A stretch of DNA of 35,122 nucleotides, from IMG/VR virus record IMGVR_UViG_2713896901_000010; one strand, written 5' to 3'. This document shows positions 1 to 30,023 of the stretch, piece by piece. Made by a program: the position numbers and the translations under genes. The notes below the pieces were generated by a model. It saw only the letters and a list, made by a program, of their open reading frames with translations, was not told the origin of the DNA and ran no database searches. Source of the stretch: a virus (Duplodnaviria; Heunggongvirae; Uroviricota; Caudoviricetes). Within the stretch, counting starts at the first letter, position 1. Each line of letters starts with the position of its first letter.

Positions 1-258
1 ATGCAGCAGTATCACTATCCACTGGAAGACGGATTTACCGAAAGGATTCACACGCCGGGAGGCGTCAGGTCACTGGTGGAGGGATCGCACTTGATGAAAT
101 TACTCCGGGATCTCAATAAGGATGGATTTAATGTCGATGGCCCACTTGCCGAACTGACTGCACTGATTAACTACGTCACCAGCTCACAGATGTCTATGCA
201 GGATCTGCAAACACATCTCGACTATTGTGCCGAACAATTACGAAAACAAACCAGATAA
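1..258 (+). CDS. C-terminal fragment of an antirepressor-family protein (5' end upstream of window)
   Basis: Frame open from window edge to TAA 256-258; its ~80 aa share ~45% identity with the C-terminal module of the two complete antirepressor genes (576-1226, 2008-2952). Confidence 0.5.
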   Translation: MQQYHYPLEDGFTERIHTPGGVRSLVEGSHLMKLLRDLNKDGFNVDGPLAELTALINYVTSSQMSMQDLQTHLDYCAEQLRKQTR

Positions 259-575: not shown

Positions 576-1226
576 ATGAACGCTCAACTCATCCCCGTAT
601 TCAACGGCACTATATCCAACGAAACCGCTCTTCTCGTTAATGCCCGTGATTTACACACTTTCCTCGATGTGGGTAAGCGATTTGCTTCGTGGATTGTCGA
701 ACGAATTGCTGAATATGGTTTCGTTGAAAATCAAGACTTTATGATTATTTCCCAAGTTCGGGAAAAAATAGGCAGAGGCCGTCCTGCAAAAGACTACCAC
801 CTCACCCTCGATACAGCCAAAGAGCTGGCGATGGTCGAGCGTAACGAAAAAGGTCGTCAGGTACGACGCTACTTCATTGAATGCGAGAAACGTTTAAGAC
901 AACAAGAAACAAAAGTGGAGAAGGTCTTGTCAGGCTTCATGCCCGCCATTATGGAGGCGATCAAGCTGGAAGACAAAAAAGAATACAGCGCCCCGCTGAA
1001 GCCCGGCTACCGCAGTCTGATTCATTCTCCGTCTGGTGTTCTCGGCCTGACGGAGAACTCACTGCTGATGAATCTGCTGAACCAGTTACAGGACGACGGG
1101 CACGACGTATCGGGCGCGGCGGCGGAGCTGACAACCATGTTCTGCTACATCGTCGGTGTGAGCAAATGCCTGCGTGATATCCAGACACACGCGGAGTACA
1201 TCAACGACAAGGCAGGATTCTTCTGA
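576..1226 (+). CDS. phage antirepressor, KilAC-type N-terminal domain plus shared C-terminal module
   Basis: ATG 576 with GGAG 9 nt upstream; N-terminal ...DYHLTLDTAKELAMVERNEKGRQVRRYFIECEKR matches the KilA-C/ANT antirepressor signature; last 80 aa identical to the C-terminus of the 2008-2952 product. Confidence 0.8.
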   Translation: MNAQLIPVFNGTISNETALLVNARDLHTFLDVGKRFASWIVERIAEYGFVENQDFMIISQVREKIGRGRPAKDYHLTLDTAKELAMVERNEKGRQVRRYFIECEKRLRQQETKVEKVLSGFMPAIMEAIKLEDKKEYSAPLKPGYRSLIHSPSGVLGLTENSLLMNLLNQLQDDGHDVSGAAAELTTMFCYIVGVSKCLRDIQTHAEYINDKAGFF

Positions 1227-1984: not shown

Positions 1985-2241
1985 CACATCCCTGTGCCGC
2001 CGTTCTGTCAGAAGAACCCTGCCTTGTCGTTGATGTACTCCGCGTGGGTCTGGATATCACGCAGGCACTTGCTCACACCGACGATGTAGCAGAACATGGT
2101 GGTCAGCTCCGCCGCCGCGCCCGATACATCGTGCCCGTCGTCCTGTAACTGGTTAAGCAGATTCATCAGCAGTGAGTTCTCCGTCAGGCCGAGAACACCC
2201 GACGGCGAATGAATCAGACTGCGGTAGCCGGGCTTCAGCGG
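1985..2241. repeat. inverted repeat arm 2 (partner of 994-1248)
   Basis: Reverse complement matches 994-1248 at ~95%. Confidence 0.8.
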
Positions 2242-2952
2242 ATAACCATAACATTTTGTCTGTGTTTTAATTGCCTCACGAAGCGCATCTAACATCTTGA
2301 CTGCCACTTCATCATTCTCTGATGCAGATCCAGCAGGGAGATGCTCCCCTTCAAGCGGAACCCGAGCAACAAGAGACAACGCTTCGGCGAATTGATCTTC
2401 ATCAATTTCTTTGTACGAACAGCCAAAATGAGATTTCAGTGACGACCACATGGTGATCATCGCCTTAGCCTGTTTTTCTTTTGGCAGAGACTGACCGCGA
2501 CTCATGACGAGTTGTTTAATGGCTTCCTGCTGTTCAGTGGTTATTTTACCCGGCAGCGCCTTTTTAGCTTTGCGTGGGTTAACCACATGGCCTTTAGTCC
2601 AGTACTCGTAGAGCACATCGTCACACTCTTCCTGATACTGGATTACCTTGTCGCGGATTTCAGGGCGGACTTTGTTAGGGCTGATGGTTTGCAACCAGCC
2701 AGCAAGTTTGCGAAGTGCCAAACAAATAATCTCACGGCGCTGTTCATCCCCAGGAAGCTGCATTGTGATTTTCACAATGCAGGTTTTAAACCGCTGCTTC
2801 ATTTTCGTAAACTGTGAAGCCCAATCCATACCCATGCCTTCAACGATAGGTTTCATTGGGGTGTACGGTTCTCCGTTGTGATTGACAACATAAAGTTCTG
2901 CGCCGTGGAATGGCACGTTGATAGTAGATACCGCTGTTGCTATACTCGCCAT
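2008..2952 (-). CDS. ant: antirepressor Ant (P22 Ant-like N-terminus plus shared C-terminal module)
   Basis: ATG 2952 with AGGA upstream; N-terminus ...INVPFHGAELYVVNHNGEPYTPMKPIVEGMG resembles P22 Ant ...SYVPFNGQQVRTVLIDGEPWF; sits downstream of arc as in P22 immI. Confidence 0.8.
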   Translation of the reverse strand: MASIATAVSTINVPFHGAELYVVNHNGEPYTPMKPIVEGMGMDWASQFTKMKQRFKTCIVKITMQLPGDEQRREIICLALRKLAGWLQTISPNKVRPEIRDKVIQYQEECDDVLYEYWTKGHVVNPRKAKKALPGKITTEQQEAIKQLVMSRGQSLPKEKQAKAMITMWSSLKSHFGCSYKEIDEDQFAEALSLVARVPLEGEHLPAGSASENDEVAVKMLDALREAIKTQTKCYGYPLKPGYRSLIHSPSGVLGLTENSLLMNLLNQLQDDGHDVSGAAAELTTMFCYIVGVSKCLRDIQTHAEYINDKAGFF

Positions 2953-3024: not shown

Positions 3025-3192
3025 TTATGCCACGCTATTCTTCTCACCAGTGAGTCCATACACTTTCCTCAGCTGATAGATAATCTCTGTATTGAACTTT
3101 CGGCATTCTTTTTCGCCATTTCTTTCAATAGCTAACTTCACATCGTCCGGAAAACGAACTCGTCGTTGACACATCTCTTTTGCTTTTTGCAT
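3025..3192 (-). CDS. arc: Arc-like ribbon-helix-helix repressor (55 aa)
   Basis: Internal ATG 3192 with AAGGAG at 7-nt spacing; RRVRFPDDVKLAIERNGEKECRKFNTEIIYQL parallels P22 Arc RWPREVLDLVRKVAEENGRSVNSEIYQRV. Confidence 0.75.
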   Translation of the reverse strand: MQKAKEMCQRRVRFPDDVKLAIERNGEKECRKFNTEIIYQLRKVYGLTGEKNSVA

Positions 3193-3206
3193 TTCATATC
3201 TCCTTG

Positions 3207-3266
3207 GCCCCACCGTGGGGCAAAACAATTGTCACACCGTGCGTCATTGATGTCAAGCACACGGTG
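3207..3266. promoter_or_regulatory. divergent arc/mnt control region with three spaced CACCGTG/CACGGTG heptamers
   Basis: caccgtg 3211-3217 (inside palindrome gccccaccgtggggc 3207-3221), caccgtg 3235-3241, cacggtg 3260-3266; spacing 24 and 25 bp. Confidence 0.5.
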
Positions 3267-15413: not shown

Positions 15414-15464
15414 CTTCTTTCTCCATTAGTGGGTCTGTTACGACCCACAGGTTAATAACAGGCG

Positions 15465-17167: not shown

Positions 17168-17460
17168 TCCTGTTCACTGGCCTCTTTGGCCATCTTCAAA
17201 TACTGTTCAGGGCAATGCGCCATAACGCGCTGAAACAGTTCCAGCGCCAGATTGCGTTGCCCCTCATTAAATGCCATTGCCATAGCGTCCATCGGTGAGA
17301 TAGCGGAAAACACACGGCCTTTCTCCAGCACCGACCAGACAACGCGACGCCCCTGTTCACTGCTCATGACAAAGCGAATGTCATCAATTTCACGCTGTGC
17401 CATGTCACGTTGCTTACGGGCGTTTTCTTCTTTCAGTTGATCGTCTTCGTAATCTGTCAT
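17164..17460 (-). CDS. hypothetical protein (98 aa)
   Basis: ATGA-type overlaps with portal stop and scaffold start. Confidence 0.45.
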   Translation of the reverse strand: MTDYEDDQLKEENARKQRDMAQREIDDIRFVMSSEQGRRVVWSVLEKGRVFSAISPMDAMAMAFNEGQRNLALELFQRVMAHCPEQYLKMAKEASEQE

Positions 17461-19136
17461 TGTGATTGCCCACCCTGACCACTAACTGCATTCGCCATAG
17501 CTGACAAAACACTCGGATCCGAAGTTTTAGCTTCGCTTAGCGTCTTGGCACCCTGTGCCGCCGCCATCCCCATCGCCATCATTTGTTGCTGCTGTTGTTG
17601 CTGTGCCCGTTGCTGGCGAGCCTGCTCAACCTGTTCCTGCGGAACAATGACGGTTGGAGACACTCCGGACATATCAGCGAATGCATCGATCGCCTGATCA
17701 ACGTTGAGTTTGTCGAGAGCTTCTGGTTTCGCTTGCGCAAGTTGACCAATGAAGTTGACCGTGGATGCCAGACTAGACAGGCCGATAGACTTCTGCGCCT
17801 GAGCCATGACGGAAATGTATTCGACCTTCAGGGGCATACCTTCCATCGCGTCAGGCGGTGGCGGCAGCATGTTTTTACGCACCATCATCGAGAAAGCGCG
17901 GTCAATGAGAGGATTAAGACATTCGTCGTTCAGACGCTCCAGAACCGGCCCCAACATCAGAAGTTTTTCTTCTTTCATTTCGATCACCGCTTCAACAGGC
18001 ATCGAGCGGGTATTGATGTTCTGCAACATCATGAACAGATCGACAAAGTAGGCGCTGTTAATGATTTGACGAGTGTCCTGAATGTCTGCCACCAAATCTG
18101 CTGTACTGGGGTTAACCAGATAAGCAGGCCTGAAACCATCCTGACCAGTAATCTGATCGATATACGTGATGTCGCCAGGAAGAAGGGAGGCACGCTGATT
18201 CTTGAGGGAAGTCGGAGCAACCATCGGCGGATTGGTGGCTTTATCAATCAACTGCGACTTGCGCTTCTGGAGAAGCTGCAATGCCTTAACAGGTCCAAGC
18301 GCCAGCATACCCGGGCATGATGATCCATAAACATCTTCGCCGTTAACTTCCCAGCGCGGAGCCATAATTGGAAACTCATCGAATCCGGACTCACGCAACA
18401 ACTTGTCGTTATCGCCACCAACCTCGTAATAAACCGATTTGAATGGCTTGTTCTTGCTATCCAGCTTCGATGTATCGCGGTCAATGTTCGGGTAAACCGA
18501 ATGCATCACTTCAATCCACTTCTCGTAGGTGCCGCTTTCCCACATGCTTTTTACGGATTCGCTGACGTTATTTAGTCCGAATTCCTGAACAAGCTGACGA
18601 ACAGTCATAGAGAACTTACGAAAACAGGTGTCCACACTGCCACGAGGTGAGTTAGCCAGGTAGTAACTTCCTATCGGGAATGGCATTGTACGAATGATGT
18701 CCTCGTCATCCTCCAGCACCGCCATTGCGCCAGTGCTGTATGTGCCGAGGCTTCCGTATAACTGCGGCAGCGACTGATAGAGATTCGACTTATTGAACAT
18801 ATCGTTCATGCGGTTCTGCACCGCCTCAAGCCACAACTTAACAGGGCCATAATCCATCATTTCAGGATCTGGCGTAGCCAGGCGAAACCACGGACGCGCG
18901 GGGCTTGTGATGCCAGACATCATGCCGCTGGCGAGAGTACGCGCCGCCATAGTCCCGGTCGAATCAATAATGCGTGTATTGCGTCGATCGTTACGGTTGA
19001 CCTCAGAAGTCAGAAAGCGGGAACCACGCGGGTTGATGTAATCACTCAACTCGCGCCAGTGCGGCTCGAACGACTGACGCTCGCTTTCAAGTTGTGCGAA
19101 CTGTTTGTTCAATCGCTCTTTAGTTGTTTCCGCCAT
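17457..19136 (-). CDS. portal protein (559 aa)
   Basis: ATG 19136 with GGAG 8 nt upstream; size and position after terminase typical for portal; Gln-rich C-terminus. Confidence 0.85.
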   Translation of the reverse strand: MAETTKERLNKQFAQLESERQSFEPHWRELSDYINPRGSRFLTSEVNRNDRRNTRIIDSTGTMAARTLASGMMSGITSPARPWFRLATPDPEMMDYGPVKLWLEAVQNRMNDMFNKSNLYQSLPQLYGSLGTYSTGAMAVLEDDEDIIRTMPFPIGSYYLANSPRGSVDTCFRKFSMTVRQLVQEFGLNNVSESVKSMWESGTYEKWIEVMHSVYPNIDRDTSKLDSKNKPFKSVYYEVGGDNDKLLRESGFDEFPIMAPRWEVNGEDVYGSSCPGMLALGPVKALQLLQKRKSQLIDKATNPPMVAPTSLKNQRASLLPGDITYIDQITGQDGFRPAYLVNPSTADLVADIQDTRQIINSAYFVDLFMMLQNINTRSMPVEAVIEMKEEKLLMLGPVLERLNDECLNPLIDRAFSMMVRKNMLPPPPDAMEGMPLKVEYISVMAQAQKSIGLSSLASTVNFIGQLAQAKPEALDKLNVDQAIDAFADMSGVSPTVIVPQEQVEQARQQRAQQQQQQQMMAMGMAAAQGAKTLSEAKTSDPSVLSAMANAVSGQGGQSQ

Positions 19137-19150
19137 TTCAATGACTCCGG

Positions 19151-19357
19151 TTACTGACCAAGCAGCGTTTTACCGCTGGTATTAGCGGTTGATGTGTCGC
19201 CATGAGAACCGGTAAGCAGCGTAGAACTACGACCAGCAGCAGCGCGACGGCGACGTGTTTCTTCGTCGCGGGCATCAACAACGGCGGCATCCTGCTCCTG
19301 TGGTGCTGCCTGAACTTCTGGTGTTGCTGGCACTGATGGTGAGCTACCCATGCACAT
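19151..19357 (-). CDS. small hypothetical protein (68 aa) upstream of portal
   Basis: ATG 19357 preceded by GGAGTCATTGAT, almost identical to the portal initiation region. Confidence 0.4.
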   Translation of the reverse strand: MCMGSSPSVPATPEVQAAPQEQDAAVVDARDEETRRRRAAAGRSSTLLTGSHGDTSTANTSGKTLLGQ

Positions 19358-19447
19358 ATCAATGACTCCGTACGCAATTAAATTATTACCAATTTAACCA
19401 CATATGATTTATTTATCGTAGAAGGTTGACATTTGACGCGTGAATTA

Positions 19448-19462
19448 TTACCTTTCAGGTAA
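19448..19462. promoter_or_regulatory. operator dyad TTACC-N5-GGTAA (site C)
   Basis: ttacc tttca ggtaa, with TTGACA at 19426-19431. Confidence 0.5.
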
Positions 19463-19784
19463 CCAAAGAGCTCATTCCGGTTACTAACCTGACTGGCTTG
19501 TCGTTAAATTGAACAGGTGGAGTGAGCTTTTATTTTGAGCAGTACGGCGTATGGCACATGCGACGATAGCGGTCTGGATACGTTTAAGGGGCACCCTCCC
19601 TTGCTCGGGCAAACGAACCAGGTAGCCGGAATGTGCAAGTCGAGCGGTTTTATTCCGCGCACGGGGATTAACCATCCCGGCGATTCGGTGTGACGCCTCG
19701 GAAGAGACGAGGGTACAACGATGAGAGCATTTATGGAGCCGCGACAAAGTGTGGCGCCTTAACAGGCTAAGTGCTCTCAGCGTT

Positions 19785-19861
19785 GTGGCATTAGCTCAGT
19801 TGGACAGAGCAACCGCCTTCTAAGCGGTTGGTCGCAGGTTCGAATCCTGCATGCCACGCCA
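19785..19861 (+). tRNA. tRNA-Arg (anticodon UCU), phage-encoded
   Basis: Manual cloverleaf: acceptor GTGGCAT/ATGCCAC, U8, D-stem GCTC/GAGC with GG in loop, anticodon stem ACCGC/GCGGT, loop CUUCUAA, T-stem GCAGG/CCTGC with TTCGAAT loop, discriminator G, encoded CCA; differs from E. coli argU as I recall it. Confidence 0.9.
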
Positions 19862-19904
19862 GAATCACGCCTAAGGACCGTGATGCCAGAAGTTCCAGGT
19901 GCTT

Positions 19905-19946
19905 GGCGGTGATGGTTTCCCTTGAAGGACTATCACCGCCCTTTTT
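19905..19946 (+). terminator. hairpin terminator downstream of tRNA
   Basis: ggcggtgat...atcaccgcc 9-bp stem, long loop, then CTTTTT. Confidence 0.5.
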
Positions 19947-20118
19947 ACAGCAGGACGCCATTGCGATGACTTCATGCTGTAAACCCGTACAGCCACGGAA
20001 GGCATAACTCATTGCTTCCAGTTCGCCCTGTTCGCCGGGTATTTTTTTACTTGAATTTTACCCTCAACAAACCAACATAGAACTTGGCATTTGCCATAAC
20101 TTTCACAAGGAGTCAGCC

Positions 20119-20418
20119 ATGAATGGTTGGAATAGAAAAAAGACTCAATATTTAGCTGAGTGCATCCACGAACACGAAAAAGCCGACGGAGTAACCTACG
20201 ATCCTAACGGTATGGTTAGCTACTGGAACACAAAATATAACCTCGTTCCGGCTGAACAGTTGCCAGCATTACAAAATCAGGTATCTCTCGAATTAGAAGC
20301 TCTACGCGGTGCTGAGACTAACCATGTAACAATTAGCAACATTGGTGCCGCTAAGTTTGGATTCGACTCTGTAATAGGGAATCATCTACCTAACTTCGAT
20401 CCGGAGCCAGTTAAGTAA
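20119..20418 (+). CDS. hypothetical protein (99 aa), moron between terL and portal
   Basis: ATG 20119 with AAGGAG at 6-nt spacing; opposite strand to all flanking late genes. Confidence 0.6.
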   Translation: MNGWNRKKTQYLAECIHEHEKADGVTYDPNGMVSYWNTKYNLVPAEQLPALQNQVSLELEALRGAETNHVTISNIGAAKFGFDSVIGNHLPNFDPEPVK

Positions 20419-20429
20419 TTTGCTGACCA

Positions 20430-21905
20430 TTATGCATAAGGGTCATAATCCGTTATGGCCCTTCCCTGCTGGCTTTGCTGTCCTGGTATATTTATGCGTT
20501 TCGACACCGGGAAAGCAAACGTCAGCAGTAGCGCATCGCCTTTACCCAGCGAACGCCCAAGACGCTCTTTGATATCTTCCTTCGGTTCGATAACGATTTT
20601 ACCGTCCACACGAACTTTGTACTCTGCCGCCGACAGGTCGTCTGCAGTTTCCTGGTCATCCAGCATGCCGCCCAGCCTCAGCCATGTCTTGCATGAATTG
20701 AACATCTCCCCACGCTTGTTGAGCATCTGCGGGTCAGTAGACGCGCCACCGAACGGAACAAGTTGCCATGTACGACCCCATCCGTCACCGATTGACTTCA
20801 GACCGGTTCCGTAACCGAAGTCGATGAACACCGCGTCAGCCTGGTACTGGTCTTCAAAGTCAGCGATACGCTTCGCCATAATCAGATCGTCAGTGGTCTT
20901 GTTGCCAGTCCACAGCACCTTACTGTGCAGCCCCTGCCTCAGGTATATCACCGCGTCATCAACGCCTGAGTATGCCGGGTCAACGCCGATTATCACCGGA
21001 GCATGTGCAACCTGCACAGCGGTTACCACCCGTTTCATTGCCTCGTCAGTAAGGCCGGTAGGGATAAACTGCAATTCAGATGCATCCGGGAATATGCCGC
21101 GCACACGGATTTTAACGAAGTCGCTGTCTTCCCCGTAGTCATCAACCCATTTCTGCAACTGCTGTTTGTTAGTGCCTTCCACCGTCCGGCTGTCAATCTG
21201 CGCAGTTTTCCAGCGGTGTTTATATTTGCGGAAACATTCGCGGAAACGTCCGGTGTTACGTGTAGGGTTTCCAAACGCCACCCAGATAATCTCAGTGTCT
21301 TCGTCCGTAAGCGCACCCTCAGCAACTTCCCACACCAGATCCGCAATGTTCGACGCTTCATCGAATACCACGATGATGCGTTTGCGCTCGTTGTGTAGTC
21401 CGGCGAATGCCTCAGTGTTGTGCTCAGACCAGGGGATTGCGTCAGCTCGCCACCGCTTGTCGTGCCCAGGGTCATTGCTGTACATCGCGGTAGCGGTACA
21501 GGTAAACCAGTCTTTCGTGATAGCAAGGTTCGACCACTTGATAATTTCCGGCCAGGTCTTCGTTCGTAGCTGGTTGTCGGTGTTGGCGGTCACCACGACC
21601 TTACAATCCTCGCAAGTGGACATGCCCCAGTTGATCAGCATTGAGATGAATGCGGATTTACCAATACCGTGACCAGAAGCGCGTGCCAGCATAAGCGGCT
21701 GATAGCGCGTCTCTGGATTCTGCAGGTGATCACGTATCTCTCGGAACGCATCAGCCTGCCACTGACGTGGGCCGGTAGCATGTGCCAGTTCAGTCCCCTC
21801 TTCCCCCCAAGGGAACGCATAGAGGGCATAGCCAAGCGGATCGTGAGTGAACCCTGCAATATCCTCGATTAACTGCTCTTCAGGAGATAACGCTGTATCT
21901 GTCAC
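20430..21905 (-). CDS. terL: terminase large subunit (491 aa)
   Basis: GTG start overlapping terS stop (GTGA); Walker-A-like ARASGHGIGKS near N-terminus; size and position. Confidence 0.9.
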   Translation of the reverse strand: MTDTALSPEEQLIEDIAGFTHDPLGYALYAFPWGEEGTELAHATGPRQWQADAFREIRDHLQNPETRYQPLMLARASGHGIGKSAFISMLINWGMSTCEDCKVVVTANTDNQLRTKTWPEIIKWSNLAITKDWFTCTATAMYSNDPGHDKRWRADAIPWSEHNTEAFAGLHNERKRIIVVFDEASNIADLVWEVAEGALTDEDTEIIWVAFGNPTRNTGRFRECFRKYKHRWKTAQIDSRTVEGTNKQQLQKWVDDYGEDSDFVKIRVRGIFPDASELQFIPTGLTDEAMKRVVTAVQVAHAPVIIGVDPAYSGVDDAVIYLRQGLHSKVLWTGNKTTDDLIMAKRIADFEDQYQADAVFIDFGYGTGLKSIGDGWGRTWQLVPFGGASTDPQMLNKRGEMFNSCKTWLRLGGMLDDQETADDLSAAEYKVRVDGKIVIEPKEDIKERLGRSLGKGDALLLTFAFPVSKRINIPGQQSQQGRAITDYDPYA

Positions 21906-29438: not shown

Positions 29439-30023
29439 ATGAAAAGTATCCAGGACGTCCGCAGGCAAAATCTCAACGACTTGATCGACCGTGAATTCAA
29501 TGGTGTTCAGACGCGGATGGCAGAAAAACTTGGAACTCAGGCAAATCTGGTAAACCGCTGGGCTCTTGGAAAGAAGGTTATCGGCGACCAGGTTGCGCGA
29601 AAAATTGAAGCTGCCGCCAATAAACCCCGTAACTGGCTTGATATCGATCGCTCGCTTTCTCAGGAAGGTTTTCAGCCTGTCGGCCCAAGCGACATTGGTC
29701 AGCTGGCGGCTCACAACCTGGAACGCTGGATGAGCGAAAGCCGCGACCTTTCAACACAGGGAAAACTTCACCGCGCATCCGGCGTCGCCCAGGTGACAAT
29801 CAGCCGCCTGTTAAACAATGAGGTCAGCGTTTCCATTTCCACCTTGGAGAATGTTGCATCCGCATTCGGGCGTCACGGCTATGAATTACTGATTCACCCG
29901 CACGACCCTGCGACCATCAACTATGACCGCTCGCGCTACGCATTGTTACCCGAAACCGAGAAAGCAAAGATCGAAAGTTACATTGAATTTGTCATCAATC
30001 AGAACGAAAAAAACAAACAATAA
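29439..30023 (+). CDS. CI-like repressor with two HTH motifs and no S24 peptidase domain (194 aa)
   Basis: N-terminal XRE-type HTH (MAEKLGTQANLVNRW) plus second HTH (SGVAQVTISRLLNNEVSVSISTLENVA); no Ser/Lys autoproteolysis domain visible. Confidence 0.7.
   Translation: MKSIQDVRRQNLNDLIDREFNGVQTRMAEKLGTQANLVNRWALGKKVIGDQVARKIEAAANKPRNWLDIDRSLSQEGFQPVGPSDIGQLAAHNLERWMSESRDLSTQGKLHRASGVAQVTISRLLNNEVSVSISTLENVASAFGRHGYELLIHPHDPATINYDRSRYALLPETEKAKIESYIEFVINQNEKNKQ

Follow-up and report, generated by a model that had tools for sequence, protein, structure and literature searches.

The 99-codon gene at 20119-20418 of the window (the whole 35,122-nucleotide stretch of DNA that was analysed) is best explained as rare cargo of a variable gene slot, likely anti-defence in function and probably belonging to a repressor-controlled unit, with the LexA-box-like palindrome upstream of it matching by chance. 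We consider this combined reading probable, with appreciable room for doubt. The original prediction of an SOS-controlled inducer of the prophage failed, and the gene is instead an uncharacterised cargo of a phage accessory/anti-defence hotspot.

The tRNA-Arg/terL gene slot

The window belongs to a prophage of Uetakevirus type, epsilon15/phiV10-like, and its closest relative among complete genomes is the guaA-adjacent prophage of E. coli HB37. In the gap between the portal and terL genes, a plus-strand accessory unit is laid out in the order candidate promoter, structured RNA, tRNA-Arg(UCU), terminator T1, 80-nt spacer, terminator T2 and variable slot. The features that delimit the slot are as follows.

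17457-19136, minus strand: portal gene
19785-19861, plus strand: tRNA-Arg, anticodon UCU (ARAGORN; Rfam tRNA, 73 bits)
19905-19946, plus strand: intrinsic terminator T1, a 14-bp stem followed by a T run (-22.8 kcal/mol)
19977-19992: palindrome CTGTAAACCCGTACAG, an exact match to the CTGT-N8-ACAG core
20025-20048, plus strand: intrinsic terminator T2, between the palindrome and the 99-codon gene
20050-20429, plus strand: mobile cargo cassette (GC 42%), lying between the T2 T run and the stop codon of terL
20119-20418, plus strand: 99-codon ORF of an orphan family (pI of the product 5.4)
20430-21905, minus strand: terL, convergent with the cargo gene and the right-hand boundary of the slot

The tRNA gene and both terminators had gone unmentioned in the original prediction. 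A plus-strand ORF was invariably present between tRNA-Arg and terL in phiV10, TL-2011b, SPN9TCW, EC.W1-9 and Klebsiella relatives, and its identity varied from phage to phage. Homology of the window to phiV10 and TL-2011b ended with the last T of the T2 run, at position 20049, and restarted at ~20426 at the terL stop codon, which places the cassette at 20050-20429. The ORFs that come first after T2 in 104 backbone relatives formed 13 clusters, one of which was an artefact, leaving 12 genuine families. Pfam searches of this slot identified a PF13876 cargo at 45 loci, Tad2-like domains at 7 (6 + 1) loci and an Acb2/Tad1 hairpin domain at 1 locus. Since PF13876 corresponds to Acb4, a family of anti-CBASS sponges (bioRxiv 10.1101/2024.12.30.630793), at least 53 of the 104 slot occupants are homologous to known immune-signal sponges (Acb4, Tad2, Acb2/Tad1). 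PADLOC yielded no credible defence-system match among the remaining cargos. The one cargo that had PADLOC matches is a 292-aa protein with a coiled-coil-rich look, and these weak SMC-like matches are probably spurious.

With conserved flanking genes, alternation of unrelated small genes and known anti-defence genes among the cargos, the site between tRNA-Arg and terL in epsilon15/phiV10-like phages acts like a slot for anti-defence genes. Such a hotspot pattern is established for N4-like phages (bioRxiv 10.64898/2026.06.04.730250), in which Tad2, Tad3, Acb4 and Sequestin are found. Both hotspots are compact, have conserved borders and alternate unrelated small genes, and known sponge families (Acb4, Tad2, Acb2/Tad1) are among the cargos of the Uetakevirus slot. 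The latter differs, however, in belonging to a temperate genus, in holding usually one gene instead of several, and in lying downstream of a tRNA and two terminators, convergent with terL. We found no earlier description of a Uetakevirus tRNA-Arg/terL hotspot in the literature. Some ten of the slot cargo families, that of the 99-codon gene included, belong to no recognised family and thereby offer a cheap set of candidate counter-immunity proteins.

The 99-codon gene, its cassette and its product

The gene is preceded by the ribosome-binding site AAGGAG (20107-20112), located 6 nt ahead of its ATG, and is antisense to the late operon, terL and portal both being on the minus strand; on both points the original description was accurate. 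Its closer homologues shared 56-78% protein identity and ~70% nucleotide identity with it. When the gene was compared with the copies at loci L003 and L008, dN was 0.13 and dS was saturated, and the comparison of these two copies with each other gave a dN/dS of 0.23. By these sequence measures, the ORF is a real coding gene under purifying selection.

The gene is rare. Of 5426 complete E. coli genomes one had it, as did 1 of 103 IMG/VR backbone relatives, plus loci L012 and L013, and its family made up ~10 clusters (at 50% identity) among 1.84 billion representative proteins. Named copies, from E. coli, E. albertii, Citrobacter and Klebsiella, were all labelled 'hypothetical'. One copy (L007) occupies the same slot in a diverged epsilon15-like phage. 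Others are found in a lambdoid nin region (L003-L006), with PAPS reductase and serine recombinase genes on either side and in antisense orientation to both, and one is located on a short contig (L008). Remoter homologues (32-43% identity) occur in other phage contexts; in the two whose longer context was readable (P0007 and P0009), the homologue lies between antiterminator Q and holin of lambdoid prophages. Terminator-type hairpins bracket the gene in most contexts, and the cassette has a GC content of 42%, compared with 54% in terL and 51% in portal. The gene is thus a rare, horizontally mobile and self-contained AT-rich cassette that is also present in lambdoid phages.

Its description as a moron was borne out insofar as the gene is missing from close relatives, is AT-rich and recurs in unrelated phage contexts. 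Morons, in the definition for HK97/lambda-type phages quoted in PMC3573123, are promoter-gene-terminator insertions. The 99-codon gene shares with them the character of an extra gene missing from close relatives, the low GC content, the opposite orientation, the bracketing by hairpins and the recurrence in unrelated phages. It differs in lacking a clear sigma-70 promoter in the window, and in using a dedicated slot, the 3' terminus of a conserved tRNA unit, rather than a random insertion site. As to the promoter and terminator of the definition, the gene is preceded by T2 and followed by a conserved hairpin; no consensus promoter was seen in the window, and plausible promoters could be read by eye upstream of the L007, L018 and L021 homologues.

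Two short elements bear on the extent and the movement of the cassette.

20085-20096: palindrome TGGCATTTGCCA, 12 bp, 22 nt before the ATG
20433-20472 of the window, 1730-1765 of L008 and 6310-6345 of L003 (locus coordinates approximate): 3' end of terL in the window, and the terL-like scrap in the two loci

In the L008 copy, the ~35-40 nt past the stop codon resemble the 3' end of Uetakevirus terL and form a neat hairpin; the lambdoid L003 copy also has a terL-like stretch of ~35-40 nt downstream, with a weaker resemblance. This suggests that the cassette may have moved from the Uetakevirus slot to the L008 and L003 contexts with a scrap of terL attached. At the other end, TGGCATTTGCCA forms the 5' edge of homology with the lambdoid cassette copies. 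A sigma-54 promoter at TGGCATTTGCCA was rejected, the GG-GC spacing being 7 instead of 12. The 70-nt cassette stretch ahead of the ATG, a possible source of a weak promoter, also contains a TTGAAT at 20051-20056.

The AlphaFold2 model of the 99-aa protein has three confident helices (residues 3-23, 29-40 and 45-67). The C-terminal tail beyond them is modelled with low confidence, and its sequence is conserved in the closest homologues. The model has no transmembrane-like helices, and the GRAVY score is -0.56. Pfam, PHROGs, NCBIfam and PADLOC gave no match for the protein and 11 of its homologues. The best hit of a profile of the family against PDB sequences had an E value of 0.098, the fold search of the model against BFVD and PDB returned nothing significant, tblastn against 50,697 phage records found no match, and a profile search of genome contigs with a four-sequence alignment of the family found nothing. 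The compact helical bundle, together with the presence of TGGCATTTGCCA at the same position in three contexts (the window, L003-L006 and L008) and at the 5' limit of cassette homology, is compatible with a small DNA-binding regulator that acts on TGGCATTTGCCA upstream of its own ribosome-binding site, which would make the cassette a regulatory module. We regard this as improbable.

The sponges that occupy the same slot in relatives, Acb4 (PF13876), Tad2 (PF11195) and Acb2/Tad1 (PF24729), are likewise small soluble phage proteins, of ~90-175 aa. The 99-aa protein showed no sequence, profile or fold similarity to these families, and hhalign against the Acb2/Tad1-like cargo of the slot returned a probability of 0.4%, that is, no relation. 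Because the slot holds Acb4, Tad2 or Acb2/Tad1 homologues in 53 of 104 relatives, we believe that the helical protein most likely has a counter-immunity (anti-defence) role, an assignment by slot association that we make only tentatively. About half of the slot cargos are uncharacterised, so that guilt by association carries moderate weight at most. That the protein founds a new anti-defence family, as a sponge or a tail-acting inhibitor, in a hotspot that ends a repressor-controlled early tRNA/RNA unit is a possibility that we would sooner doubt than assume.

The antisense, moron-like layout would equally fit a gene that is expressed in the lysogen and benefits the host. According to such an explanation, the cassette would be a lysogenic-conversion or defence moron with a weak promoter of its own, active in the prophage, and its product would protect the lysogen, for example by superinfection exclusion or abortive infection. 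The terminator-like hairpins on both sides in most contexts, the sigma-70-like promoters read by eye upstream of homologues, the antisense orientation to the neighbours in both the Uetakevirus slot and the lambdoid nin region, and the low GC content are in line with it, and defence genes have also been reported from phage hotspots (Rousset 2022). The protein, however, had no PADLOC match, and neither its hydrophilic composition nor its model without transmembrane-like helices points this way. Slot cargos with an identifiable family were all anti-defence and none defence. Moreover, the remoter homologues between Q and holin are co-oriented with these genes at the head of lambdoid late operons, which fits lytic expression. 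We therefore consider a lysogen-protecting role unlikely and keep to the anti-defence reading of the slot cargo.

The LexA-like palindrome and the likely SOS entry

The palindrome had been proposed to place the gene under SOS control as a LexA operator, with the 99-aa protein serving as an SOS-induced, Tum-like prophage inducer. The E. coli LexA (SOS) box has the consensus TACTG(TA)5CAGTA, and the palindrome at 19977-19992 does match the CTGT-N8-ACAG core exactly. The expectation of about 0.5 such matches by chance was also close to the 0.44 per window that we computed; the window has 2 matches, and 2 or more occurred in 8 of 100 shuffles. The second match, CTGTTACGACCCACAG at 15435-15450, scored 20-23 and can be disregarded as a LexA site. 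Scoring was carried out with a Berg-von Hippel/heterology-index matrix rebuilt from 29 E. coli LexA sites. On this scale, whose absolute values are not the published HI, the known sites (n = 29) scored 0.9-9.8, and up to 12.1 when left out one at a time, whereas the palindrome, at 13.2-13.9, fell beyond that range. Of random 35-kb sequences matched to the window in composition, 93% had a site that scored as well or better; such positions averaged 2.7 per sequence, and the window has 3. Heterology-index scoring, which had been suggested as a check, thus put the palindrome at chance level. Unlike the E. coli LexA box, moreover, it has a GC-rich spacer (AAACCCGT), no associated promoter, and no conservation with the gene.

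The location of the palindrome also argues against SOS control of the gene through it. The palindrome belongs to the conserved backbone between T1 and T2 and not to the cassette; 126 nt, which include T2, separate it from the ATG. A promoter scan of 19300-20600 detected no promoter-like site. We retrieved 119 relatives with a 17-mer in the backbone next to the palindrome. In 82 of them the palindrome was present irrespective of cargo; the Klebsiella-type alleles (35 of 119) have CTGTAAACCCTGTGACACCCAG in its place, and in two E. coli-type variants its right arm is altered by point mutations. The palindrome was also absent upstream of the homologues of the gene elsewhere (L003, L007, L008, L018 and L022). 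As a LexA site, the CTGT-N8-ACAG palindrome is a chance match in a conserved spacer, not part of the cassette.

The spacer between T1 and T2 (19947-20024) is 80 nt long and non-coding, and occurs as two alleles, one E. coli-type and one Klebsiella-type. It showed no promoter, no Rfam match and no covariation. One stretch of it, TTCATGCTGTAAACC, is near-invariant across E. coli and Klebsiella relatives and adjoins the 17-mer used for retrieval. The left half of the palindrome forms part of an inverted repeat, TTTACAGCA (19944-19952) and TGCTGTAAA (19975-19983), which is kept in both E. coli-type and Klebsiella-type alleles without compensatory changes. A conserved RNA hairpin formed by this repeat or by the palindrome was considered and rejected; the variants L104, L085, L073 and L083 break pairs with no compensation, and such uncompensated disruption in natural variants lends a hairpin no support.

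Two genes elsewhere in the window bear on how SOS signals would reach the prophage.

1-258, plus strand: ant homologue, a small antirepressor gene and the first ORF of the window
29439-30023, plus strand: Rep repressor, 194 aa, with two HTH regions, 42% identical to Rep of Salmonella phage SPC32H

The premise that the repressor lacks an autocleavage domain was correct, as Rep contained HTH domains only and no Peptidase_S24 domain. The need for a separate SOS route that had been deduced from it also stands. This route, however, maps to ant at 1-258, a gene absent from the original prediction, and not to the 99-codon gene. ORF 1-258 has 87% amino acid identity to SPC32H Ant and 98% nucleotide identity to its counterpart in the HB37 prophage (L002:313-570). 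As a positive control for the LexA scan we used SPC32H, which is of the same genus and has ant and rep annotated. It returned one outstanding LexA site, CACTGTATAAACATACAGTA, with a score of 2.6, and the HB37 prophage has TACTGTATAAATATACAGTT, with a score of 1.2, ahead of its ant gene. Both are near-consensus boxes located 20 bp before the ATG of ant. The window starts exactly at the ATG of ant, and the equivalent LexA box would therefore fall just to the left of base 1. In SPC32H, SOS induction is reported to run through antirepression under LexA control (Kim and Ryu 2013, reviewed in PMC7380047). From this sequence evidence, a LexA-controlled ant is the likely SOS entry point of the prophage, and the Ant/LexA module is likely of the type already described for this genus.

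Both the Rep/Ant/LexA system of SPC32H, a phage of the same genus as the window prophage, and Tum of coliphage 186 combine a non-cleavable repressor with SOS input via a small LexA-repressed antirepressor. Here, in contrast, the antirepressor role would fall to ORF 1-258, and the 99-codon gene has neither Ant homology nor a credible LexA box. In a tblastn search of the window, SPC32H Ant matched 1-258, 975-1199 and 2035-2250, with no match at 20119-20418. The 99-aa protein belongs to no Pfam family, hence no DinI-type domain was detected, and the analogy with Tum does not hold. The proposal of a LexA operator and an SOS-induced inducer had in its favour the CTGT-N8-ACAG core, a repressor without an S24 domain, and a small gene antisense to the late operon, like ant of SPC32H. 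Set against these are the chance-level score, the distance to the ATG with T2 intervening and no promoter at the box, a box that sits in the backbone of relatives with other cargos and is missing upstream of homologues, the absence of similarity to Ant, and the candidate LexA-Ant route at 1-258. We regard it as very improbable indeed, and return to the reading of the gene as slot cargo.

The region of ant also contains larger antirepressor-type genes at 576-1226 (plus strand) and 2008-2952 (minus strand), with AntA/AntB and P22_AR_N domains. The C-terminal ~75 residues of the two larger antirepressors are 40-42% identical to the small Ant, and this shared similarity makes three Ant-related modules in the region. 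Beside the larger genes, at 3025-3228 (minus strand), is a small ORF that looks Arc-like and has no Pfam match.

The accessory unit upstream of the slot

Upstream of the tRNA, the unit begins with the following features.

19426-19454, plus strand: candidate promoter, TTGACA (19426-19431), 17-nt spacing, TACCTT (19449-19454)
19448-19462: palindrome TTACCTTTCAGGTAA, a TTACC-N5-GGTAA copy that overlaps the candidate -10
19563-19745, plus strand: candidate structured RNA, directly upstream of tRNA-Arg, in a conserved block of ~19545-19785

The candidate promoter was read from the sequence and lies below the scan threshold; it fails the scan tool because of its weak -10. It is kept as TTGACC-17-TACCTT in a Klebsiella relative. 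The 10-bp direct repeat AATTATTACC flanks it with exact copies at 19381-19390 and 19443-19452, 62 bp apart, the second of which overlaps the operator palindrome.

Allowing up to one mismatch, the window has 12 copies of TTACC-N5-GGTAA compared to 0.67 expected, a number that 0 of 100 shuffles reached. These 15-bp copies are at 290, 1291, 19448, 22498, 22516, 26975, 27037, 28984, 29321, 29369, 30081 and 30143. The rep-cro intergenic region, the ant region, the sequence immediately downstream of rep and that immediately upstream of terS have two copies each. The palindrome probably serves as operator for the phage repressor, or else for Cro, in a dispersed regulon, its assignment to Rep being by position alone, and the 12 copies would map the probable repressor regulon of these phages. 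Since the candidate promoter is overlapped by TTACC-N5-GGTAA, a palindrome that also marks rep-cro and other operon starts, the accessory unit is probably repressor-controlled. The phage repressor would probably keep it off in the lysogen, and expression would start upon infection or prophage induction. Cleavage of LexA would lead to production of Ant from 1-258, and Ant would then inactivate Rep and derepress the Rep-controlled promoters. SOS signals would thus reach the 99-codon gene only indirectly, through LexA, Ant and Rep.

T1 and T2 both lie between the upstream candidate promoter and the 99-codon gene. In relatives T2 consists of GCCCGGTTCGCCGGGC followed by T7, with a folding energy of -12.7 kcal/mol; in the window, substitutions at 20029 and 20040 weaken the stem to -5.3 kcal/mol. 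A coupling of the weakened T2 to the cassette was rejected, as carriers of the same cassette (L012, L013 and L140) have an intact T2. In most relatives (L025-L144) the start codon of the cargo is located 3-12 nt past the T2 T run, at the equivalent of 20049-20060 of the window. This gap leaves no space for a promoter of their own, and those cargos therefore need transcription from upstream. RNA polymerase must then read through both terminators to reach them, or else T2 works as an attenuator.

The intergenic region was also searched with Rfam, and the tRNA alone was above its gathering score, all other models being far below theirs. The candidate structured RNA directly upstream of the tRNA had no match in Rfam 15. 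Its fold is made up of 7 helices with 37 pairs in total, and 98.2% of cells are paired. Compensatory changes occurred at 9 of the pairs, compared to 0 of 500 shuffles and 0-4 in slid controls, and many G-U pairs point to the plus strand. The RNA was present in 83 phage records, mostly unannotated there, and is common to Klebsiella, Salmonella and Enterobacter phages. It was also found in lambdoid/Stx2-converting phages (mEp460, cdtI), just downstream of cI where this is annotated, and in P1/P7-like phages, being located between trnI and ban in P1. A covarying RNA of ~180-240 nt outside Rfam is thus common to Uetakeviruses, lambdoid/Stx phages and P1-like phages.
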